Assembly: GCA_937863685.1 (NCBI GenBank)
Contig: CALMGM010000009.1
Location: forward strand, 178,403 to 242,402
Length of the DNA stretch: 64,000 bases
DNA from: an uncultured bacterium
GTDB taxonomy: Bacteria; Edwardsbacteria; AC1; EtOH8
Reading direction: 5' to 3'
How positions within the stretch are numbered: the stretch's first letter is position 1; every line of letters starts with the position of its first letter. Shown one piece after another: positions 1 to 61,050 of this stretch. Below the pieces are notes generated by a model, which was not told the DNA's origin, made no database searches, and saw nothing but the letters and a program-made list of their open reading frames with translations. Made by a program: the position numbers and the translations under genes.

Positions 1-527
1 TCCACCGCACTTTTAGCCTCGGCATAATTCAGCCCTAGCGACATCAAAGCCTCTATGGCCGGGTCGCTGATCCCTGTCCCCTGCCCTTTGAGGGTCGGCA
101 GGCCCTCCACCACCGCCTCGGCTATCTTGCCCTTCAATTCCACCAGCAACCGCTCGGCGGTCTTCTTGCCCACTCCGGATATGGCTGTCAGCATGGTCAT
201 GTTCTGGTTGGCCACCGCCTGCTCCAAATCCTCCGGAGCCATGTGCGACAGCACCGTCAGCGCCAGCTTGGGCCCGATGCCGGAGACACCTATCAGGATC
301 TTGAAAACCTTCCGCTCCTTATCCGAGGCGAAGCCGAACAGCTGCAGGATGTCCTCCTTGACATGCAGATAGGTGAGCAGCTTGGCCTGGTTGCCGGCCT
401 CCGGCAGTTTCTCGAAGGTGTTCAGCGAAATGCTTATCTGATACCCCACCCCCCCGGCCTCGATCACCGCCTCGGCCGGATTTTTATGGATCAACGTTCC
501 CTTGATGTGATGATACATATATTTTAA
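1..527 (-). CDS. ruvA: Holliday junction DNA helicase RuvA (C-terminus runs off window edge; start codon at 525-527)
   Basis: Reverse-complement translation from 527 gives MYHHIKGTLIHKNPAEAVIEAGGVGYQISISL...GVSGIGPKLALTVLSHM...GVGKKTAERLLVELKGK. This matches the RuvA OB-fold plus helix-hairpin-helix architecture. The frame stays open to position 1. Confidence 0.8.
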
Positions 528-581
528 AAATTATTTTCTCATTTTCCCTCTCCAAATTTATTTGGAGAGGGTAGGGTTAGG

Positions 582-1073
582 TCAAACCTTTTTAACCATT
601 TGCGCCAATTGCCTTCTCTGCAGGTGGCATATCGCCACCGCCAAAGCGTCGGCCGCGTCCTCCGGCGGGCTGGCCCGCAGGCCCAGCATGGCCCGGATCA
701 TGAAGCCCACCTGTCCCTTGCCGGCCCGTCCCTGGCCCACCACCGACTTCTTCACCTCCAGCGGAGAATATTCGAACAGCTTGCACCCGGCCTGTTGAAC
801 CGCCAACAGACAAACCCCCCGGGCGTGTCCCATCACCAGTGCGCTGTGGACGTTCTTGCCGTAGAAAGTGGCCTCCACCGCCACTTCATCGGGCTGATAC
901 TGTTCCAGTATCCCCTGCAATCCGGAATAGATCACCCCCAGCCGGACGGAAAGAGAAACCCCCGGCCGTGCCTTTAGGCATCCGAGGGCTACCACTTTGC
1001 GATTTCGGCCGTCGCTTTCCAATACTCCATATCCGGTGGTCTGGCTTCCGGGATCTATTCCTAATATTATCAT
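582..1073 (-). CDS. ruvC: Crossover junction endodeoxyribonuclease RuvC (start placed at MIILGIDPG; the listed ORF extends to 1109)
   Basis: The ILGIDPGSQTTGYGVLE N-terminal RNase-H-fold motif is typical of RuvC. It lies immediately downstream of ruvA as usual. Confidence 0.85.
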   Translation of the reverse strand: MIILGIDPGSQTTGYGVLESDGRNRKVVALGCLKARPGVSLSVRLGVIYSGLQGILEQYQPDEVAVEATFYGKNVHSALVMGHARGVCLLAVQQAGCKLFEYSPLEVKKSVVGQGRAGKGQVGFMIRAMLGLRASPPEDAADALAVAICHLQRRQLAQMVKKV

Positions 1074-1164
1074 CTTTTTACCACCAAGACACCAAGGCAC
1101 CAACATCATTAACTATTAACGAATAACCATTAACAATTAACTGCATGTTGCCTTTGTGGTTCGG

Positions 1165-1914
1165 TTATTTATCAAGTTTGGCCAGGATCTCGGGAGAGAT
1201 GTCGAAGTTGGCGTAGGCCTTCTGGGTGTCGTCGAAATCCTCCACCATGTCCATCAGCTTCAACATACTCTCGGCGGTCCTTTCGTCCAGTTGGACGGTG
1301 TTCTGGGGCAGCTTGTTCATCTCGGCCGAGCTCACTGGGATCCCCTTGGCCTCGATGGCCGCTTTCACCGTTTCCATGCTGGCCGGCGCGGTGTACACCT
1401 CAAAGACGCCCTCCTCGGCCTTGACGTCGTCGGCCCCGGCCTCCAAGGCCACGTCCATCAAAGTATCCTCGTCGGTCTTGGATGAATCTATGGTGATGAC
1501 CCCCTTGGCCTCGAACATCCAGGCCACGCAGCCCTGGGCCCCCAGGTTCCCGCCGTATTTGGAGAACAGGTGCCGCAATTCGGAGGCGGTGCGGTTCTTG
1601 TTGTCCGTCACGCAGTCCACCATCAAGGCAACCCCGCCCGGGCCGTAGCCTTCGTAGGTGATCTCCTCGTAGGTCACGCCCTCCAGCTCACCGGTGCCCT
1701 TTTTGATGGCCCGCTCGATGTTGTCGGCTGGCATGTTGCTAGCCTTGGCGGTGGCGATGGCTGTTCGCAGACGCGGATTGCCGGTGGGGTCGCCTCCGCC
1801 CTGTCTGGCGGCGATGGAGATCTCCTTTATCACCCGGGTAAAGACGCGGCCCCTGGCGGCATCGATCCCGGCCTTTTTCCTTTTAATGGTAGCCCATTTT
1901 GAATGACCTGACAT
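1165..1914 (-). CDS. YebC/PmpR-family probable transcriptional regulator
   Basis: [22 protein letters not shown]...[14 protein letters not shown] is the hallmark N-terminus of the YebC (DUF28) family. Start placed at MSGHSKW, the third Met of the listed ORF. Confidence 0.85.
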
Positions 1915-2046
1915 GCAAAACCTCCTTGGCAAACGGACATGTTTTATTGAAACATGACGTATATTTGGGTTAATAGATTATCAGTTAAAACCTTAATATA
2001 TATGATTTTACCGTAAAAGGCCCGGACTTGTCAAGGAATAAGAAAG

Positions 2047-3246
2047 TCAGGCCGGGGCCAAATGGTCTGCCGCCAGCCGGGATATCGGTTCCTTTAAAAT
2101 ATCGGCGGTGATTATAGGCAGAAAAGCCCCGCCCTCGACGAACTTGGCCGACAGCAAGCCGAAGGTGATCTTTTCGATCCCGGCCGCCTTCAGCCCCGCC
2201 CGGTAGATCTGATAGGTCCGCTGAAAGGTCCCGTAATCCCGGGGGCCGGATTTCTGATAGGCCTCCTGCAGGGCATATTCCGCCGCTTCCTTCTCATCAC
2301 TATGTCGGATGATGAGATTCCGGAATTCTTTTTCCGTCAGATATTTATCCAGCCACAATGTGATGTCCTTGTCCTCGTTGTAGCCCAGGTGCAAGGTGGT
2401 CTGGCAGATTCCGCCGTATTCCAAGTGGTTTCGGACTCCTGACAGGATCTCCTCCACCAGCTCCCGCCCGCTGATGCCTCCCTCCCGATTCCAGGCTTTT
2501 ACCAAGCCCGGCGCCGAGGGCGGATTGGAGACGATTTTATCGAATTTTTGGCCGTTGACCGGTTGGTAAAGATCGCCGCAGATGAACTCCATGTTCCCGA
2601 TCCCGTTAAGCAGGGCATTGAACTTCGCCAGGTTTATCGCCCGGGGATTTATATCCACCCCTGTAACCTTTGCGGAATGGCGGGACATTATCAGTGACTG
2701 CAATCCCGAGCCGCAGCCCAGATCCAATGCAGTCTTGCATTTTTCCCTGACAAGCCCACGGGCCATAATGTACGAGGTCTTGTCCAGCCGCCAGACCAGA
2801 TTGTCGGACGATAGATATTGATCCCTGCCATATTCATCGACGTTCAGAAAGACCTTGTCGGTGGCTATCAGCAGATCCTCGAACGGCAGCAAGGTAAAGT
2901 TGGCGTGGACATCGCTCTGATCCATTGTACAGATCCCGATACTGCCTAGCAATTCCAGATCAGCGGTTCCCAAGGCTTGTTCGATAATATCCTTTTTGCC
3001 CGGCAGGCCTAAAACCAAAAAGCTTATGATATGACTTAAGGGAGTTGGATTATCCGCCAGCCTTTCGACAAACAACGGGAGATATTTGTATTCCAGCGGA
3101 TAAAGGTCGAAAATATTATCCAGGCCCAAAGCTTCTTTGACCTCCCCCACAGTCAACCCCAGACCTTTTAATTTAATCCCCAGTTGTTCAATCCGACCAT
3201 GGGTGATATTTTCATAGGATAACGGTTTTTCAAGGCTCATAGCCAT
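2047..3246 (-). CDS. Two-domain class I SAM-dependent methyltransferase (C-terminal MTS/RsmC-HemK-like domain with LDLGCGSG, VDIN and SNPP motifs; N-terminal ~190 aa domain of unknown function)
   Basis: Motif I LDLGCGSGLQ, an acidic DIN loop and an NPP motif IV were seen in the translation. An alternative upstream start at 3324 would overlap the preceding gene, so the start was placed at MAMSLEKP. Confidence 0.6.
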   Translation of the reverse strand: MAMSLEKPLSYENITHGRIEQLGIKLKGLGLTVGEVKEALGLDNIFDLYPLEYKYLPLFVERLADNPTPLSHIISFLVLGLPGKKDIIEQALGTADLELLGSIGICTMDQSDVHANFTLLPFEDLLIATDKVFLNVDEYGRDQYLSSDNLVWRLDKTSYIMARGLVREKCKTALDLGCGSGLQSLIMSRHSAKVTGVDINPRAINLAKFNALLNGIGNMEFICGDLYQPVNGQKFDKIVSNPPSAPGLVKAWNREGGISGRELVEEILSGVRNHLEYGGICQTTLHLGYNEDKDITLWLDKYLTEKEFRNLIIRHSDEKEAAEYALQEAYQKSGPRDYGTFQRTYQIYRAGLKAAGIEKITFGLLSAKFVEGGAFLPIITADILKEPISRLAADHLAPA

Positions 3247-3292
3247 ATCCTCTGATTTGCAAGACCTTTTGTCCTGGTTTCTTGAATTAACT

Positions 3293-4165
3293 TCAAATCC
3301 CAAACCTTTCTTTGAGCATTTCATAGCCCTGTTTGAAAGTGCAGGGCAGGCCGTCCAGGGAATCCAGCATCATGTACAGCGAGATTCTTTTATAATATAA
3401 TTCGGCCCGGTGAAGCAGTCCCTCATCCTTCCGGCACATATACAGATCATAGACCCTTTTAACAAAATCTCTCCCGTACTCCATGATGCCGGCGAAGTCC
3501 GCCGCTGGGTCGCTCCAGCAACGGTCGCTGAAATCTATTACGCCCATCCGTTTATTTTGACCGTCCCACAATATATGCTCGCCAGTCAGATCGTTATGCG
3601 CTAAAACCCGGCATCGTACCTTTTTTATCGAATCGTCCAGATCTTTCAAATATTCGTTGATGATTTCGATATGCCGGACGTTTAATTTTGGATAAATCTT
3701 TTTACGAACGCTTCGAATCAGGCTGGCATTGAGCTTTACTTCATCTTCCAAACGGACATGGAATCGCATGGCATTCCGCCTGGGCACAGAATGCAGTGAA
3801 GTGATGAACCCGGCAATTTGCTCGGCCGCTGCTTTCTTATCGGCAGGCTTAAGGCGCTTGAATAGCTTTCTATCCAATTCCTTCCCGGGCAGCATCTCAT
3901 AACCGGCCAGGGTTTTATCCCGGGAGACATACCTATAGCCGGGAATTTTGATCTTCACTTTGCCCTTCAAATACTTTAAAAGTCGGATCTCATCATGAAA
4001 CTCTCTGGGCACACCCCTGTCAAACCTTTTGGGCGTTCTGAAGACCAGCTTCTCGTCCAGGACTGCCACATGGTGGTCCCACCCATGATCAATAAAGCGA
4101 TGGCTTTCCCAGGTAATGTCCGGGAACTCGCTTTTTATCCGACGGAGGATCGTTTTTTTATCCAT
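3293..4165 (-). CDS. Aminoglycoside/macrolide phosphotransferase (APH/Mph)-family small-molecule kinase
   Basis: A Brenner-like catalytic loop VLAHNDLTGEHILWD and a metal-binding GVIDFSDRCWSDPAADFA segment resemble APH/Mph kinases (HGDLHPGHIL, IDWGDAGIGDPAYDLA). Confidence 0.65.
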   Translation of the reverse strand: MDKKTILRRIKSEFPDITWESHRFIDHGWDHHVAVLDEKLVFRTPKRFDRGVPREFHDEIRLLKYLKGKVKIKIPGYRYVSRDKTLAGYEMLPGKELDRKLFKRLKPADKKAAAEQIAGFITSLHSVPRRNAMRFHVRLEDEVKLNASLIRSVRKKIYPKLNVRHIEIINEYLKDLDDSIKKVRCRVLAHNDLTGEHILWDGQNKRMGVIDFSDRCWSDPAADFAGIMEYGRDFVKRVYDLYMCRKDEGLLHRAELYYKRISLYMMLDSLDGLPCTFKQGYEMLKERFGI

Positions 4166-5105
4166 CGTGATCCCGGCGTTTCAATGTCTTAAAAGAAAGC
4201 ATATGCCAGGTCACGCCGGCCGCGATCAGGAATAAAACAACTCTGACCATAAGAAGCTTAATGACACACAAGGCCGCAAAGGTTATGGTGATCCACAAAA
4301 CCGAGATCGACAGTATCTTTAATTTTAGCGGAATACCGCGGCGTTCCCGGTAATTCCTTATATAATTACCAATCCACCGATTATTTAAAAGCCAGCCATA
4401 GAACCTCTGCGAGCTTCTGGCATAAAGGAATGCCGCCAACAGCAGGAACGGCGTGGTGGGCAGCAGCGGCAGGAATATGCCCAAGATGCCCAGCCCGACA
4501 GAGACGGTGCCTGCAATCACCAAGATTATTCTCAAAATTTTGCTATCGGTTTTTTGTTTCATTACGGTGCTTTTTGAACCATATTTTTCGATTTCACTCA
4601 TCATTTTTTGGGCGATTTCTGCCGGCGAGTCCGCAGAGAATATCTTTATGTCGCCCAGTTCTTTGTATTTAGGATACCTACGATTGAATTTATTTATTTC
4701 CGTTTCCTCCGTATATCCCAGCCCTCGTTCAAGCTGACGTTTAACGACGATATCGGCGCTTTTCTCCAATGATTCCGAAGGAAGCAGTAAAATTGACACC
4801 CCCTGCTCTCTCACAGTTTTAATATGTTCTCCCGCCAAGCCTTCTCCGCTATCGTATGCAAAAAATCCCGAAGACAATACGAATACGCAATCCGGGTGGA
4901 TCTTTTCTAAAATTTCATAAAATAACCGGGAATTATCCAGGCAATATCTTTCATAGCCCTGTTCATTTATGTAATCATCGATATTGCCGAGTTTATTGAT
5001 GAATTCCTCATCCAGATCAATGGACTCGCATCCCAGCTTATTAGCCAATAGCCTGCCGCAGGTTGTTTTACCCACACCGCCAGGGCCAATGATAAATATT
5101 TTCAT
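4158..5105 (-). CDS. Fusion protein: N-terminal shikimate-kinase/CPT/TmrB-like P-loop kinase domain plus C-terminal DUF454 (YbaN-like) membrane domain
   Basis: The N-terminus MKIFIIGPGGVGKTTCGRLLANKLGCESIDLDEEF aligns by eye with AroK ([30 protein letters not shown]). The C-terminus ILRIILVIAGTVSVGLGILGIFLPLLPTTPFLLLAAFLYARSS...RERRGIP is DUF454-like with 3-4 TM helices. Confidence 0.55.
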   Translation of the reverse strand: MKIFIIGPGGVGKTTCGRLLANKLGCESIDLDEEFINKLGNIDDYINEQGYERYCLDNSRLFYEILEKIHPDCVFVLSSGFFAYDSGEGLAGEHIKTVREQGVSILLLPSESLEKSADIVVKRQLERGLGYTEETEINKFNRRYPKYKELGDIKIFSADSPAEIAQKMMSEIEKYGSKSTVMKQKTDSKILRIILVIAGTVSVGLGILGIFLPLLPTTPFLLLAAFLYARSSQRFYGWLLNNRWIGNYIRNYRERRGIPLKLKILSISVLWITITFAALCVIKLLMVRVVLFLIAAGVTWHMLSFKTLKRRDHDG

Positions 5106-5106
5106 T

Positions 5107-5697
5107 TTACCTGATGTGCCCCTTGGCTATCGTATCCTCAATCAGCCCTTTGGCATAATCCCACAGCGCTTTTGAACCGTTGCCGATCCGGCTGTTCAAT
5201 GCCAGAACTCTATCCGCCGAGACTTTGTTTTCCCGCCAAGCCTGTCCCTGATTGTTGTGATTTTGCATCACCGGACCCAAGCGATCCAACGCCATCGCGA
5301 ACTTCGCTTCCGATGTATCCTGCATTTCGTATTCTTCCCATAAAGAGATCATTTCATCCCGTTGCCCGGACGGCAGCAGGCCGAATATCCTTTCGGCGGC
5401 CGCTTTTTCGTTTTTACATTTGGCTTCCTTCAAACTGTCATCATATATAAAAGTATCCCCGGCGTCTATCTCCACAATATCGTGTATCAAACCGATTTTC
5501 ATGACCTTGAGTATATCAATATCCGGGTCATCGGCATGTTCCTTTAGGATCAAGGCCATCATGGCAAAGTGCCAGGAATGCTCGGCATCGTTTTCGTAGC
5601 GGGAATTGTCCAGTATTTTTGTGCGGCGAAAGATGGATTTGAGCTTGTCGATCTCTATTATGAATTCTATCTGCTGTTGTAATTTATTGTCTGCCAT
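5107..5697 (-). CDS. HD-domain phosphohydrolase (YfbR-like 5'-deoxynucleotidase family)
   Basis: The H...HD metal-binding motifs (EHSWHFAMMALIL, GLIHDIVEIDAGD) are present. The size (~196 aa) fits YfbR-like HD hydrolases. Confidence 0.7.
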   Translation of the reverse strand: MADNKLQQQIEFIIEIDKLKSIFRRTKILDNSRYENDAEHSWHFAMMALILKEHADDPDIDILKVMKIGLIHDIVEIDAGDTFIYDDSLKEAKCKNEKAAAERIFGLLPSGQRDEMISLWEEYEMQDTSEAKFAMALDRLGPVMQNHNNQGQAWRENKVSADRVLALNSRIGNGSKALWDYAKGLIEDTIAKGHIR

Positions 5698-5751
5698 TTT
5701 TCTCCTATAAAATTTAACAAACGACCCAGGCTTTCGCCTGGGTCATTAAAA

Positions 5752-7158
5752 TTATTCCCCGAATTTTTTAGGCCTCACTGTCTGTCCCTTTGGTCCATCC
5801 TCCACCATAAAGCTCAGTTTTGCTATCTCGTCCCTCAGCCGGTCGGATTCGGCCCAGTTCTTGGCCGTCCGGGCCTCCTGGCGCTTCTGTATCATATCCG
5901 CAATCTCTTTGGGAATGGCAGATTCACCGGCGGATTCGGTCAGTTTCAGCCCCAGAACCCGGTCGAAATCTTTTATCAGGCCCAGTTTCTGGGCTGCATC
6001 CAGGCTGTTATCTTTCAACAGATCCCAGACAATGGCCAGCACCTGCGGCATGTTCAGATCATCATTGATGGCTGCCAAAAATTTCTTTTTATATCCATCC
6101 TCCCCTTTCCCATCGGGGGAGGGATCCAGGGTGGGGTCCAGTTTCTTTACTTCCGCTCGCAGATTCTCCAGCGCCCGCTGGGCCGCGGTCAAAGATTCGT
6201 AGGTAAAACTTAATTGCGACCGATAGTGTCCGGTAAAGCAGAAATAGCGGTAGGCCAGCGGATCATATCCCTTGTCCATCAGGGTCTGCAGGATCAGGAA
6301 CTCACCGGATGATTTGGCCATCTTCTCCTGCCCCAATTGCAGAAAATATCCGTGCAGCCAGTAATTGGCCAGATTGGTGCCATGGCAGGCCTGGGTCTGG
6401 GCTATCTCATTTGTGTGATGCACCGCAATGGCATCCTCCCCGCCGCAGTGGATGTCGAACAGCGGGCCCAGGTATTTGGCGGCCATGGCCGAGCACTCTA
6501 TATGCCAGCCGGGAAAACCCTTGCCCCAGGGGCTTTCCCACTCCATCTGGCGCTGGGTCCCTTCGGGACTGAACTTCCACAGGGCGAAGTCGGTGGGATG
6601 CTTCTTCTCGCCCATCTCTATCCGGACTCCGGCCATCAGATCCTGCACTACGATCTTGGTGAGCACCCCGTATTTTTTCAGCTTGGCGGTATCGAAGTAG
6701 ATACCGTCCGAGGTCCGGTAGGTGTAGCCCTTCTCCTCTATGCACCGGATGGTCTCGACCTGCTCCTTTATGTGATCGGTGGCCTTGCACCAGATGTGCG
6801 GCTCCTGGATGTTCAGGTCCCGCAGGTCCTTCTTGAAGGCCTGGGTGTACTCCTCGGCGATCTCCCATGCGGTCTTGCCGGTGCGGCGGGAGCCCTTCTC
6901 CATCTTGTCCTCGCCGGAATCGGCGTCGGATTCCAGATGCCCCACGTCGGTGATATTCATCACCTGGTTGACCTGCAGGCCGTTGTATTCCAGGGCCCGG
7001 CGCAGAACGTCTTCGAAAATGTAGGTCCGCAGGTTGCCGATATGGGCGTAGTCGTAGACCGTCGGACCGCAGGTGTACATGCCCACCTGTCCGGTCTTTA
7101 AGGGTACGAACTCCTCCTTGGTGCGGCTCAATGTATTGTAAAGTTTGATAGCCATCAA
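5752..7158 (-). CDS. cysS: Cysteine--tRNA ligase
   Basis: YTCGPTVYDYAHIGNLRTY (HIGH region) and KMAKSSGEF (KMSKS) were seen. Overall class I aaRS, CysS-like. Confidence 0.9.
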   Translation of the reverse strand: MMAIKLYNTLSRTKEEFVPLKTGQVGMYTCGPTVYDYAHIGNLRTYIFEDVLRRALEYNGLQVNQVMNITDVGHLESDADSGEDKMEKGSRRTGKTAWEIAEEYTQAFKKDLRDLNIQEPHIWCKATDHIKEQVETIRCIEEKGYTYRTSDGIYFDTAKLKKYGVLTKIVVQDLMAGVRIEMGEKKHPTDFALWKFSPEGTQRQMEWESPWGKGFPGWHIECSAMAAKYLGPLFDIHCGGEDAIAVHHTNEIAQTQACHGTNLANYWLHGYFLQLGQEKMAKSSGEFLILQTLMDKGYDPLAYRYFCFTGHYRSQLSFTYESLTAAQRALENLRAEVKKLDPTLDPSPDGKGEDGYKKKFLAAINDDLNMPQVLAIVWDLLKDNSLDAAQKLGLIKDFDRVLGLKLTESAGESAIPKEIADMIQKRQEARTAKNWAESDRLRDEIAKLSFMVEDGPKGQTVRPKKFGE

Positions 7159-7543
7159 TTCCTCCTTGATTGGGATAATTATAGTTTCAAATCTTGCTCT
7201 TTGTCAACCATAAAGATTGGGAACATTTCACACAGATCACACAGATTAGTGCAGATTTTCTCGGATTTAATTATATGTTTTTGGTTAACCAGTAAAGTCA
7301 GTGTGAATCCGGCCCACTCCATGTTCAATCGTGTGCCATCCCCTGCTATCTAATTTTCAAACCCCATCCGTTTGAATCCGTAAAGATCCGCTCAATTCGT
7401 GTTCCATTCCCCTTGTCCGATTTTTTCCGATTTTGGTTGACTTGCCCTATTAAATATGATAATTTTTATAGATGTTATTAAACCCCTTCACCATTAGGGA
7501 AGGGGTGGGGATTAGGCCAGAATTCTAGATAAGGAGGCTTGCC

Positions 7544-8038
7544 ATGCCGGATGCCAGCGACAAAGTAAGAAATTTCATGGAAAAGCTGTTCCGGATAGTT
7601 CCGGGATACGGCGGCTATGCCGAGAAGGAGTCACGCCGCAACACCGATAAGATCCTGCGTCTGCACCTGGCCGGACAACTGGACGAGGCCAAGTCGGCCT
7701 TCGACCGTTTCATGTCCGATATGACCAAGCAAAAAGGCCACCTCGAGCTGATGACCGATGCCTCCTCGATCACCAAACTGCTGGAGAAGGTCATTGACCG
7801 GCTTAAATACGCCGAATACGGCTACTCCGGGTTCTTCGACAGCCCCAAGGTGCAGGAGCCGGAACTGCTGGCCCTATATGAGTTCGACACCAGCCTGGCG
7901 CAGAATATCATGGACCTGAAGAGCAAAATCTCGGTGATCAAGCCGGATGCCTCGATCTTGAAAGCGTTGCTGGAGGACTTGCGGAGATTCGACGACAGGT
8001 TGAATGCCCGGCACGAAGCGATAACTAAGCCTGTTTAA
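7544..8038 (+). CDS. Hypothetical helical protein, no recognised domain
   Basis: Clean ORF with an AGGAGG RBS, directly upstream of the SPFH gene. Confidence 0.5.
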   Translation: MPDASDKVRNFMEKLFRIVPGYGGYAEKESRRNTDKILRLHLAGQLDEAKSAFDRFMSDMTKQKGHLELMTDASSITKLLEKVIDRLKYAEYGYSGFFDSPKVQEPELLALYEFDTSLAQNIMDLKSKISVIKPDASILKALLEDLRRFDDRLNARHEAITKPV

Positions 8039-8041
8039 GCG

Positions 8042-8084
8042 GTTTAAACGTTTAAACAGTTTGAACTTGTTAAACCTTTTAAAC
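8042..8084 (+). repeat. Five tandem degenerate 8-9 bp units (GTTTAAAC GTTTAAAC AGTTTGAAC TTGTTAAAC CTTTTAAAC) just upstream of the SPFH gene
   Basis: Seen directly in the sequence. A related motif GTTAAAACTTGTTAAACTTTTATAAG occurs at 15746-15771, upstream of the PorV-like gene. Confidence 0.6.
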
Positions 8085-8097
8085 TTTAGGAGCAAAT

Positions 8098-9123
8098 ATG
8101 GCCAAGATAATGGAAGTCATAGAATATTTTGACAATACCGGCAATCAGCTGGTGCACCGGGTTCCCGAGGACGGCTCGGGCGAGACCAAGATCGGCTCCC
8201 AGCTGGTGGTCCGGGAAAGCCAGCAGGCAGTGTTCTTCCGGGACGGCAAGGCCATGGACGTCTTCGGGGCCGGCCGCCATACACTGACCACCATGAACCT
8301 GCCGATCCTGACCGGAATGCTGAAAGGGGTCTTCGATGGCAAGAGCCCCTTTAGGGTGGAGGTCTATTTCGTCAATTCCAAGGTCTTCACCGACATGAAA
8401 TGGGGCACATCGGAGCCCATCCCCTTCCGCGACAGCGAACTGCAGATGATCCGCCTGCGCTCCTTCGGCATCTACTCCACCAGGGTCAAGGATCCCCAGC
8501 TATTCGTCAACAAGATGGTGGGCACCCAGGGATTATACACCACCGAGCAGATCGACGGCTTTTTGAAGAACGTCATCGTGTCCCGGCTGGCCGATTATTT
8601 GGGCGAGAACTACAAGACCATCCTGGACGTGGCCCAGCACTACGATGAGCTGGGGACCGGTCTGAAAGCCAGACTGCAGGAGGATTTCGGCAAGTACGGA
8701 CTGGAGATGGTGGACCTGTATATCAGCGCCATCACCCCCCCGCCCGAGGTTCAGGCCCGGATGGACGAGCGGGCCGGGATGGCCGCGGTGGGGGACCTTA
8801 ACCAGTACATGAAGTTCAAGGCGGCCAATGCCATGGGCGATGCCGCCAAACAGGAGGGCGGAGCGGCCGGAGCCGGGGTGGGCATGGGCGCCGGGATAGG
8901 CATGGGCATGATGATGCCCGGCATGCTGCAGCAGGCCATGGCCAGCGGACCGATGGCCGCCTGCCCCAAGTGCGGCACCCAGAACCAGACCACCGCCAAG
9001 TTCTGCTCCAACTGCGGCGGACCGATGGCGGTGGCCCCGGCCACCACCCCCTGCCCCAAGTGCGGCAAACCGGTGGCGACGGGCAGCAAGTTCTGCAATG
9101 ACTGCGGGGCGAAACTGGGGTAA
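8098..9123 (+). CDS. SPFH/band-7 domain protein with two C-terminal zinc ribbons (COG4260-like)
   Basis: The N-terminal SPFH-like region is followed by a Gly/Met-rich linker and CPKCGTQ...CSNCGG and CPKCGKP...CNDCGAKLG double CxxC zinc ribbons. Confidence 0.75.
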   Translation: MAKIMEVIEYFDNTGNQLVHRVPEDGSGETKIGSQLVVRESQQAVFFRDGKAMDVFGAGRHTLTTMNLPILTGMLKGVFDGKSPFRVEVYFVNSKVFTDMKWGTSEPIPFRDSELQMIRLRSFGIYSTRVKDPQLFVNKMVGTQGLYTTEQIDGFLKNVIVSRLADYLGENYKTILDVAQHYDELGTGLKARLQEDFGKYGLEMVDLYISAITPPPEVQARMDERAGMAAVGDLNQYMKFKAANAMGDAAKQEGGAAGAGVGMGAGIGMGMMMPGMLQQAMASGPMAACPKCGTQNQTTAKFCSNCGGPMAVAPATTPCPKCGKPVATGSKFCNDCGAKLG

Positions 9124-35605: not shown

Positions 35606-36268
35606 TTAATTTCTAGTTTTAATACCGTCTAGTAACAGATTAGTTATTAATGTAATGTTGTCTGTGTTGTAGATTTTTTTCCTGTTCATGAATGAGTTGA
35701 TCGCAACGCCATGACAAAGGCTGAAAATTGCTATGGCTACCTGATTTGGATTCAACGCATGGAATTGGTTCAATTCAATCCCATGGGCAATATGCTCTGA
35801 TACCATATTTACCATCTTCTGATAATGTCGGCGGAACCGAGATTTAACAATACCATCAGCGCACGTGGTTACCGCCAATTGCTCCCGATTCATCAACCGA
35901 AGTAAATCAATGTTCTGGTCGAATATCTGTAGCATGGTCACCACCAGAAGGGCGATTGTCTGGTCGGGCGTTATATCTTGAATCAGCACGTCCTTTATCT
36001 TCTCTCTGAAATTGATCATTTCCTCCTCCACCACCGAGATGAACAAATTCTCCTTGCTCGAAAAATAACCGTAAAGCGTTCCCTTGGCAAACTCGGCCTT
36101 CTCGGCTATCTCGTCCAGGGTGGCTGCATGTAGACCTTTTTGGGCAAACACTTCCCGGGCAGCCTTAAGTATATCCTTTTTTTTAACTTGCCGTTCCCGT
36201 TCTTTACGGGATGCCACACCTGTTGTGTTTTTCACATTTGTCATACTTTTATCCTTGATGATTTTCAT
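35606..36268 (-). CDS. TetR-family regulator heading the efflux gene set
   Basis: HTH TLDEIAEKAEFAKGTLYGYFSSKENLF. Confidence 0.8.
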   Translation of the reverse strand: MKIIKDKSMTNVKNTTGVASRKERERQVKKKDILKAAREVFAQKGLHAATLDEIAEKAEFAKGTLYGYFSSKENLFISVVEEEMINFREKIKDVLIQDITPDQTIALLVVTMLQIFDQNIDLLRLMNREQLAVTTCADGIVKSRFRRHYQKMVNMVSEHIAHGIELNQFHALNPNQVAIAIFSLCHGVAINSFMNRKKIYNTDNITLITNLLLDGIKTRN

Positions 36269-36298
36269 GTGTCTCTCTACCTTTCATCATTTCCAAAC

Positions 36299-37276
36299 CT
36301 ATTTACATATTGTTTTTAGATTTAAACATTCTACCGCATTCTGTTTTTTTGCATCCCACGTTCTATTCCACCAGACTGCCAAAAGAATTGCAAACCCACC
36401 ATGTATGAAACCAGCCAATATGTCAACCAAATAATGATATGCTCCAAAAAGAGTTGACAATAAAAGCAAGACCGTAGTTATAATGAACGGAAGCGACCAC
36501 CATTTGATGTACCGCACCATGAATATACAAATGACCAGGGAACCTGCAGCATGACCGGAGGGGAAAGCACCTCCGCAATATGCCGTGCCAGATATGAAAG
36601 CGCTTATTTGATGTGTCACCCATCCACCGTTAAGTTTTAAATACCGCCACACCTCAAAACGCGGACTATGAGCAGGCAACAACATAAACCACAAATATGT
36701 GCCATACAAAGCCGCTATTATCCCCAAGCGCAGGTTGGCAAATGCCCTAAGAAGTTTCTTAAGATATAAAATAAGGCTGCTGCTGAAAATCATTACAAAA
36801 AATGAGCAGTAGGAAAGCTGCATAAGATCGGTAAACCTGACGGAGGCCCCTCTTTGCAGTATCCTTACCGGGTCGTCACCGATCAGCCAGACATCGAATT
36901 GGTTGAGTAATCCGTCCAGATTCCAGGCAAAAATAGCATGAATGAAATCGCCTGCCCAGTGATAGGTGACTGGCAAAGTGGCAATGGGGTACCAGTCGGA
37001 AGCTATGGCAAGGATCCTGCCGGGAAACCTTACGGTCAAATATCTTAAAATGATTATCGCTGCCAGCGCCGCAGTATGCCGCAACGCCACCACTTGGTAA
37101 GCGGAAATATTATGATGAAAGACCAGCGCCGAAAGGACCATCAGGAATTCGTAACCGGCGATAAACCAATCTACCGGCCTGAATATTTTTATGAATTTCC
37201 CTGATATTCCCGGAAAACATTTACCACTCGTCGTTAATCTCCTATTTGAAGCAAATCTGAATGGCATGCAGCCCAT
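36299..37276 (-). CDS. PAP2-superfamily membrane phosphatase/phosphotransferase
   Basis: PSGH (GAFPSGHAAGS) and SRxxxxxHxxxD-like (YHYLVDILAG) acid-phosphatase motifs in a multi-TM protein. Confidence 0.6.
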   Translation of the reverse strand: MGCMPFRFASNRRLTTSGKCFPGISGKFIKIFRPVDWFIAGYEFLMVLSALVFHHNISAYQVVALRHTAALAAIIILRYLTVRFPGRILAIASDWYPIATLPVTYHWAGDFIHAIFAWNLDGLLNQFDVWLIGDDPVRILQRGASVRFTDLMQLSYCSFFVMIFSSSLILYLKKLLRAFANLRLGIIAALYGTYLWFMLLPAHSPRFEVWRYLKLNGGWVTHQISAFISGTAYCGGAFPSGHAAGSLVICIFMVRYIKWWSLPFIITTVLLLLSTLFGAYHYLVDILAGFIHGGFAILLAVWWNRTWDAKKQNAVECLNLKTICK

Positions 37277-60066: not shown

Positions 60067-61050
60067 CTATTTATCCCGTGTTTTGTAAAATTGTTCGAAC
60101 ATCTTTTTTGCGGTTTTCGATTTTACAAGAGGCACCTCTGTGACTAATGGTTTGATGGCTGAAAAAAATGTAACGAGACGATAGCCTATAAGTGGGGAAT
60201 CGGTGCCTTCTGTCCGCTTATACTTACCATTGTAATAAATGTCTAGTGAGTATTTCGGTCCGGTTGAATCGTAAGTATCTTTTTTAAAGCGCATCCTATC
60301 AAGAGAACTGGTTTTTAACAGGTCTATAAAACGCCTATACAGTGAATCGCTCAAACAACCCTGATAATATCCCTGTTTCAATGCGTTTTTGTTGCCATAC
60401 TTATAAAGGCCCCATAATTGCATTGCGAATTTATTTCCATATAAATACATGGTTTTAGTGCTGTCAATTATTATCCTTAGGTCCCTTTCTATGAGCTTGC
60501 CTTGGGGTAAATATATCCCCCCTGTGTTGCCGCTTCCTATCGTCCCACCAGTGCCCTGTAGCCTGTTATGTTCGCAAAATAATAATCGGTCGAAAGAAAA
60601 TAATGTATCTTTTAAAATAGAGTATAGGGTTATCGTACGAGTACTATCAAATAAGTACCCGTCCTCAACAGCATGTCTATATTGCTTCCACTTGCTGTTG
60701 CGATAGGGACGGAGAACAAGCGAATCTGGATTCTGGTGTTCGATGATAAAGCAAACACCTATAGTATCAGCCGGTTGAAGATTATCTTCCGACATCGTGT
60801 CTGACAGGGATTGTGCCAGGCTACCCCCTCGTATCAAACGGGGCGTGAATAATTCCAGGCTATCCTCCCTCAAGGTATAATTAAACACATTCCAGTCGGT
60901 GCTGAAATCAAAAAATGCTACCGTATCAACAATGCGAAGGCTTTCAGAACTATTGCCCACCCAAAACCCTAAAATCGTATTTGCGTCCCTGGCGCCTGTC
61001 GCAATAGAAGTCAGCGAGACGCATAACGCAATAGTAAGAAATATTTTCAT
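60067..61050 (-). CDS. Secreted hypothetical protein in a low-GC island
   Basis: Signal peptide MKIFLTIALCVSLTSIATGA. No recognisable domain. Visibly A+T-rich codon usage. Confidence 0.5.
   Translation of the reverse strand: MKIFLTIALCVSLTSIATGARDANTILGFWVGNSSESLRIVDTVAFFDFSTDWNVFNYTLREDSLELFTPRLIRGGSLAQSLSDTMSEDNLQPADTIGVCFIIEHQNPDSLVLRPYRNSKWKQYRHAVEDGYLFDSTRTITLYSILKDTLFSFDRLLFCEHNRLQGTGGTIGSGNTGGIYLPQGKLIERDLRIIIDSTKTMYLYGNKFAMQLWGLYKYGNKNALKQGYYQGCLSDSLYRRFIDLLKTSSLDRMRFKKDTYDSTGPKYSLDIYYNGKYKRTEGTDSPLIGYRLVTFFSAIKPLVTEVPLVKSKTAKKMFEQFYKTRDK

Follow-up and report, generated by a model that had tools for sequence, protein, structure and literature searches.

Do the four genes that separate cysS, the gene for cysteinyl-tRNA synthetase, from yebC in an uncultured Edwardsbacteria genome form one module acquired from elsewhere, or did they come to lie together in some other way? 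The genes, found in the list of open reading frames (ORFs) as four co-directional minus-strand frames, belong to a 64,000-nucleotide (nt) stretch of contig CALMGM010000009.1, hereafter the window (Table 1). They encode an HD_3-type phosphohydrolase (HD), a shikimate kinase-like P-loop kinase (SK) fused to a DUF454 membrane domain (SK::DUF454), an APH(2'')-like kinase (APH) and a two-domain methyltransferase (MT). A preliminary description of the locus had suggested that they could be a horizontally acquired module, either for modification of xenobiotics or antibiotics with self-resistance or for salvage of phosphorylated metabolites. Its four ORFs are real and intact, and Pfam agrees with all its family calls (HD hydrolase, SK-like kinase with membrane domain, APH, MTS methyltransferase); none of the four proteins passes a curated NCBIfam cut-off. 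As to the origin of the locus, we consider it probable that it consists of a conserved backbone, cysS-MT-yebC-ruvC(-ruvA-ruvB), and of an old accessory array that is eroding in the gap between cysS and MT. The finding is mostly a correction, in which an apparent imported resistance operon becomes a backbone gene next to the remains of an old array: odd composition and tight spacing meant here neither recent transfer nor a single pathway.

This reading is based on ten related loci of Candidatus Edwardsbacteria, the annotation carried by the MT homologues, all of them metagenome assemblies recovered, among the matches listed, through MT or a neighbouring gene. A search of genome contigs with the MT profile gave, among the matches listed, mostly generic methyltransferases and one further Edwardsbacteria locus, while a metagenome search with the APH profile found three loci only. 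The order cysS...MT-yebC-ruvC is kept in all ten (L006 ends at MT). What varies is the content of the cysS-MT interval. It holds no genes in L002, L006 and L098/L099, whose MTs are 41-48% identical to that of the window. The window itself has HD, SK::DUF454 and APH; L086 (MT identity 78-79%) has HD, SK::DUF454, APH and a further gene, here called X; L003 (83%) has HD and DUF454; L004/L005 (76%) have DUF454 followed by two opposite-strand ORFs, one of them weakly nucleotidyltransferase-like; L001 (68%) has DUF454, APH and X; and L087/L088 (68%) have a CsgG-like gene, an unknown gene, a frameshifted HD, SK, DUF454 and X. The HD gene of L087 is split between two reading frames and is a pseudogene. 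The invariant order is HD, SK, DUF454, APH, X, MT, and in the subclade with MT identities of 68-83% DUF454 is found in all seven loci, whereas HD, SK, APH and X are each patchy. T9SS (type IX secretion system) sorting domains elsewhere in the window agree with the Edwardsbacteria annotation of the MT homologues.

Identity matrices divide these loci into two clades, one with the window, L086, L003 and L004 and the other with L001 and L087. Since each clade holds every family among its members, their common ancestor had all six genes, and at least seven losses have occurred since; the lineage of the window retained HD, SK, DUF454 and APH, and lost X. MT, in contrast, is a lineage-fixed backbone gene and not cargo, because each relative has it at this site, even where cysS and yebC enclose no other gene. 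The proposal that the four genes were acquired together is contradicted by this position of MT: if they were an island, its members should be jointly absent from related sites, but MT is present in all ten loci and DUF454 in all seven of the subclade. A single pathway should be gained and lost as a whole, but the seven loci show six different gene sets. The search for the same combination in other genomes, which the preliminary description had proposed, did find the same order in L086, but the association is patchy and confined to one Edwardsbacteria subclade. The array of the ancestor carried HD, SK, DUF454, APH, X and MT in fixed order, and its descendants kept different subsets. The genes that were kept are under purifying selection: the ratios of nonsynonymous to synonymous divergence (dN/dS) with respect to L086 are 0.07 for HD, 0.20 for SK::DUF454, 0.13 for APH and 0.18 for MT, compared to 0.08 for cysS and 0.10 for yebC.

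Erosion of the array also involved the joining of two of its genes. In L087 SK and DUF454 are separate, with the SK stop and the DUF454 start sharing an ATGA overlap, and DUF454 stands alone in L001, L003 and L004; the reading frame is uninterrupted in the window and L086 (..EKYGSKSTV-M182-KQK..), where Met182 is the former DUF454 start codon. Comparison of these junctions between fused and separate loci demonstrates that SK::DUF454 arose by loss of the SK stop codon, the two genes having been coupled through ATGA until then. Proteins with both domains form only three clusters at 90% identity among the hits, and this rare kinase::DUF454 fusion is a lead by which the YbaN/DUF454 family, so far uncharacterised, can be put to the test.

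Gene X (L086:8813-9694, L001:7106-7978, L087:8025-8900, L093:1032-1412) encodes a 290-amino acid (aa) protein between the APH and MT positions of the relatives, and has no Pfam or NCBIfam match. Its model (pLDDT 96) has a predicted GT6/GT8-like GT-A fold, but the family has no DxD motif, with WxxPxxL instead. The family, which has a GT-A fold but no Pfam entry and counts at least 779 members, is a lead in its own right; homologues elsewhere occur in unrelated neighbourhoods. The spacer between APH and MT in the window gives no significant alignment to X; X is absent without a scar.

The A+T-richness noticed in the cluster was borne out by a windowed calculation, although the deviation is modest and strongest in the SK domain. 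GC is 48.0% as opposed to 53.6% for the window, which places the cluster in the lowest 4% of windows of equal length. The G+C content at third codon positions (GC3) is 0.58 for HD, 0.51 for SK::DUF454, 0.57 for APH and 0.63 for MT, while the 53 long ORFs of the window, which served as comparison set, have a mean of 0.69 with a standard deviation (sd) of 0.12. The deficit of the array genes is 1-1.5 sd, and exceeds 2 sd only for the SK domain, the compositional extreme of the cluster (GC 0.42, GC3 0.44); MT deviates by no more than 0.5 sd, its N-domain being low and its catalytic half at 0.71. Similarly low GC3 values are found elsewhere in the window for two TetR regulators, a PAP2 protein and two orphans, which indicates that low GC3 here also accompanies accessory or weakly expressed genes. 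Moreover, the L086 orthologues have equal GC3 values at a synonymous divergence (dS) of ~0.6; low GC shared at this distance means that its origin precedes the split of the window from L086 and is not recent. A recent island insertion was likewise ruled out, as no tRNA gene within 12 kb, Rfam match or flanking direct repeat was found at the cluster, and no integrase or transposase occurs among the ORFs of positions 1-9000. Two low-GC3 regions of the window may be recorded here: 35606-37276 (minus strand), with a TetR regulator and a PAP2-family protein (GC3 0.51 and 0.48), and 60067-61050 (minus strand), a 327-aa orphan with no Pfam match whose GC3 of 0.42 is the minimum of the window.

The suggestion of a role in resistance was examined through APH, which matches PF01636 with 81.5 bits (cut-off 23.2). 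The catalytic aspartate, whose loss would have weakened the assignment, is in place: the catalytic loop HNDLTGEH (aa 190-197, positions 3575-3598) and the metal-binding IDFSD (aa 210-214, positions 3524-3538) are invariant in three orthologues. APH aligns over its full length, and at equal size, with APH(2'')-Id/IVa (E 2e-20; residues 8-252 of Id), whose motifs HNDFSSDH and IDFGD match its own; identity to APH(2'')-IVa/Id is ~25%. However, it scores only 68.8 bits in NCBIfam against the 600 required for APH_2pp_Ie_IVa (curated cut-offs are 475-625), and 20-41 bits for the Mph families, with cut-offs of 500-650. APH thus stays far below all curated thresholds for resistance genes, and no claim of antibiotic resistance is warranted. 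Of the homologues found, the syntenic copies in Edwardsbacteria are closest (64-67%); the next, at 48%, come from environmental bacteria, in GNAT-NUDIX-GNAT-APH arrays without other families of the array described here. APH would appear to phosphorylate a hydroxyl of a sugar-like small molecule. A pathway from phosphoethanolamine to phosphocholine, with APH as ethanolamine kinase, MT as PMT and HD as phosphatase, is unsupported: the choline-kinase match to APH is 23 bits (cut-off 29), and PMT structures match only the generic methyltransferase core of MT, with a TM-score normalised to the query (TMq) of ~0.3.

In MT the motifs LDLGCGSG (2704-2727), VDINPRA (2638-2658), SNPPS (2515-2529) and NREGGISGRE (2461-2490; all minus strand) can be recognized, and LDLGCGSG, the acidic residue of VDIN and NPP are invariant across 19 homologues, so that the residues for binding of S-adenosylmethionine (SAM), whose absence would have counted against the call of an MTS domain, are kept. 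The residue that follows NPP is Ser (NPPS), with NPPY in one distant homologue. A profile of 19 MT sequences finds as its best solved relative GenN of Micromonospora echinospora (PDB 5TYQ, 5U18, 5U4T; E 1e-32, 116.8 bits), followed by HemK (54 bits) and AerE (32 bits); the GenN alignment pairs query residues 76-312 with chain residues 39-263, from part of the N-domain through motif IV and beyond. The AlphaFold model of MT (pLDDT 88, pTM 0.89) gives a similar picture in Foldseek, with GenN at E 2e-22 (TM-score normalised to the target, TMt, 0.77-0.81) and AerE at E 4e-19 over the whole length (TMq 0.73), whereas for all other structures the match is restricted to the Rossmann core.

GenN, the gentamicin 3''-N-methyltransferase (PMC4340712, PMC5819394), shares with MT a two-domain layout (helical N-domain and class I methyltransferase) and a near-identical region of motifs I and II (LD(L/M)GCGSG, VD(I/V)NPRAV), in which its LDMGCGSG and VDVN align with LDLGCGSG and VDIN. 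The two differ in that overall identity is ~20%, GenN has NSP where the MT family has invariant NPP, and MT has ~80 extra residues, with an N-terminus that is longer and a beta/alpha extension at the C-terminus; furthermore, MT lies outside any aminoglycoside biosynthetic cluster, in a housekeeping neighbourhood of a non-actinobacterial phylum, and no 2-deoxy-scyllo-inosose synthase, aminotransferase or glycosyltransferase set was found among its neighbours. The proteusin Asn N-methyltransferases AerE/PoyE (PDB 7RC2-7RC6), of similar size (~375 aa), offer the best whole-length superposition, but the sequence match of AerE covers the methyltransferase core only; no RiPP (ribosomally synthesized and post-translationally modified peptide) precursor, radical-SAM epimerase or other proteusin gene was found near MT. 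With PrmC/HemK, the release-factor glutamine N5-methyltransferase, MT shares NPP, the MTS match and the GG loop (NREGGxSG, to be compared with EPxxALxGG), but PrmC has NPPY rather than NPPS, its TIGR03534 cut-off is not reached (62.9 versus 199.1 bits), and PrmC 2B3T superposes only on the methyltransferase core of the model (TMq 0.34), its N-domain not at all. GenN, AerE and PrmC are themselves mutual structural neighbours (PMC9060474).

From these relationships we infer that MT transfers a methyl group from SAM to a nitrogen. The substrate can be named only with decreasing confidence: an amine of an aminosugar-bearing molecule is our tentative preference, a protein amide is quite possible though doubtful, and RNA is a poor candidate. 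The last two are the basis of a reading in which MT would be a protein (Gln/Asn amide) or RNA (exocyclic base amine) N-methyltransferase linked to translation, co-expressed with cysS and placed beside yebC, and the intervening genes incidental cargo. The invariant NPP is the motif of PrmC, AerE, RsmC and TrmM, AerE is a peptide Asn N-methyltransferase that matches MT over its whole length, and GenN has structural kinship with AerE and PrmC; in deep lineages, moreover, MT is strictly adjacent to cysS, with a gap of ~57-180 nt, and it is present in every related locus recovered. We regard this reading as somewhat unlikely, since the GenN match is far above those of HemK and AerE, the fourth residue of the motif is not aromatic as in NPPY/F, the equivalog cut-offs of PrmC, PrmB and RsmC are all missed, and the sequence of MT changes faster than those of the adjacent genes (48% identity versus 69-74%; dN/dS 0.18 versus 0.08-0.10).

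At E<=1e-30, an exhaustive search with the MT profile gave 1,871 representative clusters. Many members of this family are ~500 aa long, with DUF7059 and DUF7782, and some reach ~1,250 aa by fusion to NodU/CmcH-type carbamoyltransferases; no functional study of DUF7059, DUF7782 or DUF454 was found in the literature. This family of GenN/AerE-like N-methyltransferases (DUF7059 + MTS), with 1,800 or more representative clusters and some carbamoyltransferase-fused members, is another lead. Among distant members, P0342, P0347, P0351, P0363, P0384 and P0393 measure ~880-1,280 aa; the two that were scanned, P0342 and P0393, combine a NodU/CmcH-type carbamoyltransferase with a GenN-like methyltransferase, and P0342 has the DUF7059 N-domain. 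These fusions recall the pair NodS/NodU, which shares a single aminosugar as substrate. In P0307 and P0341 there are two tandem methyltransferase modules.

The idea of an acquired module can also be put in a sharper form. HD, SK::DUF454, APH, (X) and MT would then be a coherent set that modifies an aminoglycoside-like or aminosugar compound by phosphorylation (APH, SK), N-methylation (MT), glycosyl transfer (X) and dephosphorylation (HD), for detoxification or self-resistance or for tailoring of an endogenous glycoconjugate, and that an Edwardsbacteria ancestor acquired horizontally. It is suggestive that three of the six ancestral proteins have sugar or aminoglycoside enzymes as nearest characterised relatives: the best solved relative of MT by both sequence and fold is GenN, that of APH is APH(2''), whose target, the 2''-OH, is next to the site methylated by GenN in one and the same ring, and X has the GT6/GT8-like GT-A fold; the carbamoyltransferase fusions of the MT family, the fixed order and coupling of the genes and the lower GC from HD to APH can be added. 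We nevertheless consider this module improbable. MT is older than the array and stands alone beside cysS in deeper lineages; arbitrary subsets are kept, such as HD+DUF454+MT or DUF454+APH+X+MT, which is unexpected for an obligate pathway; the homologues of APH and X elsewhere are unlinked to the other families; APH is far under all resistance cut-offs; GenN has NSP and X lacks DxD; and core aminoglycoside biosynthesis genes are nowhere nearby.

HD covers the whole of PF13023 (170.7 bits, profile 1-165/165), with weaker YfbR-like and HD matches, and its H..HD..D ligands are present in AEHSWH (5569-5586), IHDIVEID (5464-5487) and ALDRL (5278-5292); orthologues in L086 and L003 are 90% and 82% identical. 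The closest solved structure is 3KH1, an HD_3 protein of Magnetospirillum (near full-length match, E 4e-56) with identical metal-ligand motifs, which is a structural-genomics protein without assigned function; human HDDC2 follows at E 2e-17, and the E. coli 5'-deoxynucleotidase YfbR matches weakly (E 5e-5). HD would be expected to hydrolyse a phosphomonoester, and nucleotides are the first guess.

The SK domain matches PF01202 over residues 10-172 (51.7 bits, cut-off 22.1), and among solved structures E. coli AroK is the closest (1KAG, E 1.6e-7). With AroK/AroL it shares the P-loop fold, the Walker A motif (GPGGVGKTT, aa 7-15, positions 5061-5087, minus strand), a DxD after strand 2 and the LID arginines, but the shikimate-binding residues are replaced family-wide: Arg58 is Cys, and in place of GGG, which aligns with GFF, stands SSGF(F) (4860-4877). 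A 24-member alignment has the signature SSGF, RQLxRGxG, in which SSGF is invariant; the shikimate kinase equivalogs of NCBIfam are missed (at best 34.6 bits, cut-offs 186-204), and AroK/AroL lack the membrane-domain fusion. The preliminary likening to chloramphenicol phosphotransferase and TmrB found no support, since the Pfam and NCBIfam matches at E<=0.01 are confined to SKI and generic AAA families. The DUF454 half matches YbaN/DUF454 inner-membrane proteins over their full length (131 bits, E 2e-38, residues 192-307) and forms two hydrophobic hairpins; the basic stretch ahead of the first hairpin would place the kinase in the cytoplasm, and the fusion may thus be a membrane-tethered kinase that phosphorylates a metabolite other than shikimate at the membrane's inner face. 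Outside Edwardsbacteria the nearest relatives of SK are ~180-aa Patescibacteria proteins, 50-59% identical (Absconditabacteria, SR1, Pacebacteria and others), in differing neighbourhoods. This 'shikimate kinase' family with SSGF (P0072-P0186; L089:5001-5528, L090:5001-5543; translation of L089 requires genetic code 25) probably does not consist of shikimate kinases; as a large family common in Patescibacteria, bacteria from which shikimate synthesis is not expected, it is a further lead.

In a reading based on salvage of nucleotides or nucleosides, HD would be a 5'-(deoxy)nucleotidase, SK a nucleoside or nucleotide kinase and DUF454 a small membrane facilitator, HD and the tethered SK::DUF454 together tuning a pool of phosphorylated metabolites, while APH and MT would be unrelated neighbours. 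The YfbR/HDDC2 family of HD_3 is treated as 5'-nucleotidases (PMC5098729), and kinases with the SK fold have the fold of NMP kinases. HD and SK lie 1 nt apart in the window, and the SK family, devoid of shikimate-binding residues, is abundant in Patescibacteria. These bacteria depend on salvage. On the other side, HD reaches 34.1 of the 122 bits required for the YfbR equivalog (NF003009); L003 has HD without SK, and L087 has SK with an HD pseudogene only; and no transporter function of DUF454 was found in the literature. A pairing of HD and SK in Patescibacteria was also looked for and discarded: in one Absconditabacteria locus an HD-domain gene does lie directly upstream of the SK homologue, but it has no detectable relation to HD_3, and the SK homologue of the other context examined (one protein, three overlapping contigs) has no HD gene beside it. 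Salvage is accordingly, in our opinion, quite improbable.

Anti-phage defence was considered as well and set aside, since the PADLOC matches are weak or partial: MT matches the methyltransferase core of MADS mad2 (87 bits) and the SK domain the full profile of 'VakA', weakly (27 bits). HD, APH and X have no PADLOC match, there are no further defence genes nearby, and no literature on VakA was found.

The spacing of the genes is tight. The preliminary description had reported two overlaps, of 8 nt and 1 nt; the former exists at the SK/APH junction (ATGGATAA), but the latter is in fact the 1-nt gap between HD and SK (TAA-A-ATG). MT starts at Met29 of its longest ORF, at 3240, as homologues of 395-397 aa align from this residue, public collections list a 397-aa product, and AGAGGA, a Shine-Dalgarno-like sequence, lies 7 nt upstream; with this start the APH/MT junction is a spacer and not an overlap. 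The junctions are therefore +1, -8 and +52 nt, all on one strand, and terminator-like sites within genes are only weak.

The hairpin between cysS and the cluster exists and is stronger than first described (-22.5 kcal/mol; z -4.9 versus shuffles), but it is not a boundary of the cluster. It begins 4 nt past the cysS stop and ends 22 nt ahead of the HD start. L086, L003 and L004 have exactly the 37-nt stem-loop of the window, despite a coding divergence of dS ~0.6, and the gene that lies 3' of it is HD in L086 and L003 and DUF454 in L004; more distant relatives have other hairpins at the equivalent position. Because it comes straight after the cysS stop and is the same in these three relatives regardless of the next gene, the hairpin is a conserved cysS terminator. 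Its conservation with cysS also rules out an island border, and the fact that it is single-copy in the window rules out a repetitive extragenic palindromic (REP)-like element. As there is no room for a promoter between the hairpin and HD, the array genes would be transcribed by read-through from cysS, and with so short a distance any HD transcript must cross the hairpin. Transcription into the cluster probably starts from the promoter-like site upstream of cysS, and yebC-ruvC probably has its own promoter just past MT, marking the end of the unit. In such a scheme the cysS promoter would drive the array through a leaky terminator, and the resulting low expression would fit the lower GC3.

These results can be weighed together. 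The retained proteins may each be catalytically competent and largely independent, rather than components of one obligate pathway, as is argued by the retention of subsets, the separate history of MT and the unlinked contexts of APH and X elsewhere. Several points weigh against the reading of a backbone with an eroding array. Fixed order, tight spacing and the SK::DUF454 fusion are also expected of a single-pathway operon, and the relatedness of APH to APH(2''), of MT to GenN and of X to GT-A enzymes may mean that they share one aminosugar substrate. With only ten loci, all of them metagenome assemblies, part of the losses could be artefacts of assembly or binning. The dS of APH between the window and L086:7941-8810 is ~2.0, compared to 0.33-0.81 (about 0.6) for the neighbouring genes, and the four APH orthologues are equidistant in a star-like matrix (59-67% identity); this suggests allele replacement by recombination, or diversifying evolution of the APH gene alone, and with replacement some horizontal movement does occur. 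Finally, read-through and promoters are consensus-level assignments, and the numbers of promoters and terminators in the region are not above those of shuffled controls. There is also a long shot that the ancestral array was a genuine, undescribed pathway which built or disarmed an N-methylated, phosphorylated metabolite of aminosugar type at the inner membrane; if so, DUF454 proteins would pass a substrate to a dedicated kinase or take one from it, with the SK::DUF454 fusion as the Rosetta-stone clue, and first functions would follow for DUF454/YbaN and for the 'shikimate kinase' family of Patescibacteria.

Table 1. Features of the window between ruvC and the upstream region of cysS.
Feature	Position	Strand	Basis and remarks
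Promoter-like site, sigma-70 type, TTGACA-18-TATAAT	7178-7207	-	Consensus scan, 12/12; ~20 nt upstream of cysS start
cysS, cysteinyl-tRNA synthetase	5752-7158	-	Pfam tRNA-synt_1e E 1.5e-93; upstream backbone; syntenic in ten related loci
Hairpin, cysS terminator (listed as terminator or attenuator)	5720-5747	-	12-bp stem, GAAA loop, T-rich tail
HD, HD_3 metal-dependent phosphohydrolase	5107-5697	-	Pfam HD_3 E 3e-50
SK::DUF454 fusion, 315 aa	4158-5105	-	Pfam SKI E 1.5e-13 and DUF454
SK-like P-loop kinase domain, residues 1-181	4563-5105	-	Pfam SKI, AroK alignment
DUF454 (YbaN-like) four-helix membrane domain, residues 182-315	4158-4562	-	Pfam DUF454
APH, APH(2'')-like small-molecule kinase	3293-4165	-	Pfam APH E 1e-22
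APH-MT spacer, 52 nt	3241-3292	-	Site where relatives have gene X
MT, GenN/AerE-type two-domain N-methyltransferase, 397 aa	2047-3240	-	Pfam MTS E 4e-18; longest ORF 2047-3324
Promoter-like site, TTGACA-18-TAAAAT	2005-2034	-	Consensus scan, 11/12; just past MT stop, before yebC
yebC	1165-1932	-	Pfam; downstream backbone; 92-98% protein identity in relatives (with ruvC)
ruvC	582-1109	-	Pfam; downstream backbone; 92-98% protein identity in relatives (with yebC)

Some minor observations concern the surroundings of the array. The intergenic region upstream of cysS measures 385 nt, is A+T-rich (GC ~0.43) and has no Rfam match. Beyond it lies a 164-aa ORF without a Pfam family (7544-8038, plus strand), which points away from cysS and is followed by a Band_7/zinc-ribbon gene (8098-9123); by size and position, Pfam-less ORFs of 164-165 aa correspond to it in L001, L003, L004, L086 and L087. 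Directly after cysS, L087:4753-7052 and L088:3026-5325 contain a CsgG/LpoB-like lipoprotein gene and a 301-aa orphan. The ORFs inserted between DUF454 and MT in L004:7034-7902 and L005:7034-7902 (minus strand) encode 180 aa, weakly nucleotidyltransferase/AbiEii-like, and 109 aa, weakly helix-turn-helix-like, and are possibly a toxin-antitoxin pair. L001 lacks the terminator hairpin, its DUF454 starting 4 nt past the cysS stop. Its cysS (L001:4415-5806) is only 54-56% identical to that of the window, while its yebC is 92-94% identical and the cysS of the other relatives 83-92%; to judge from these values, the L001 gene looks like a replacement by a distant allele.

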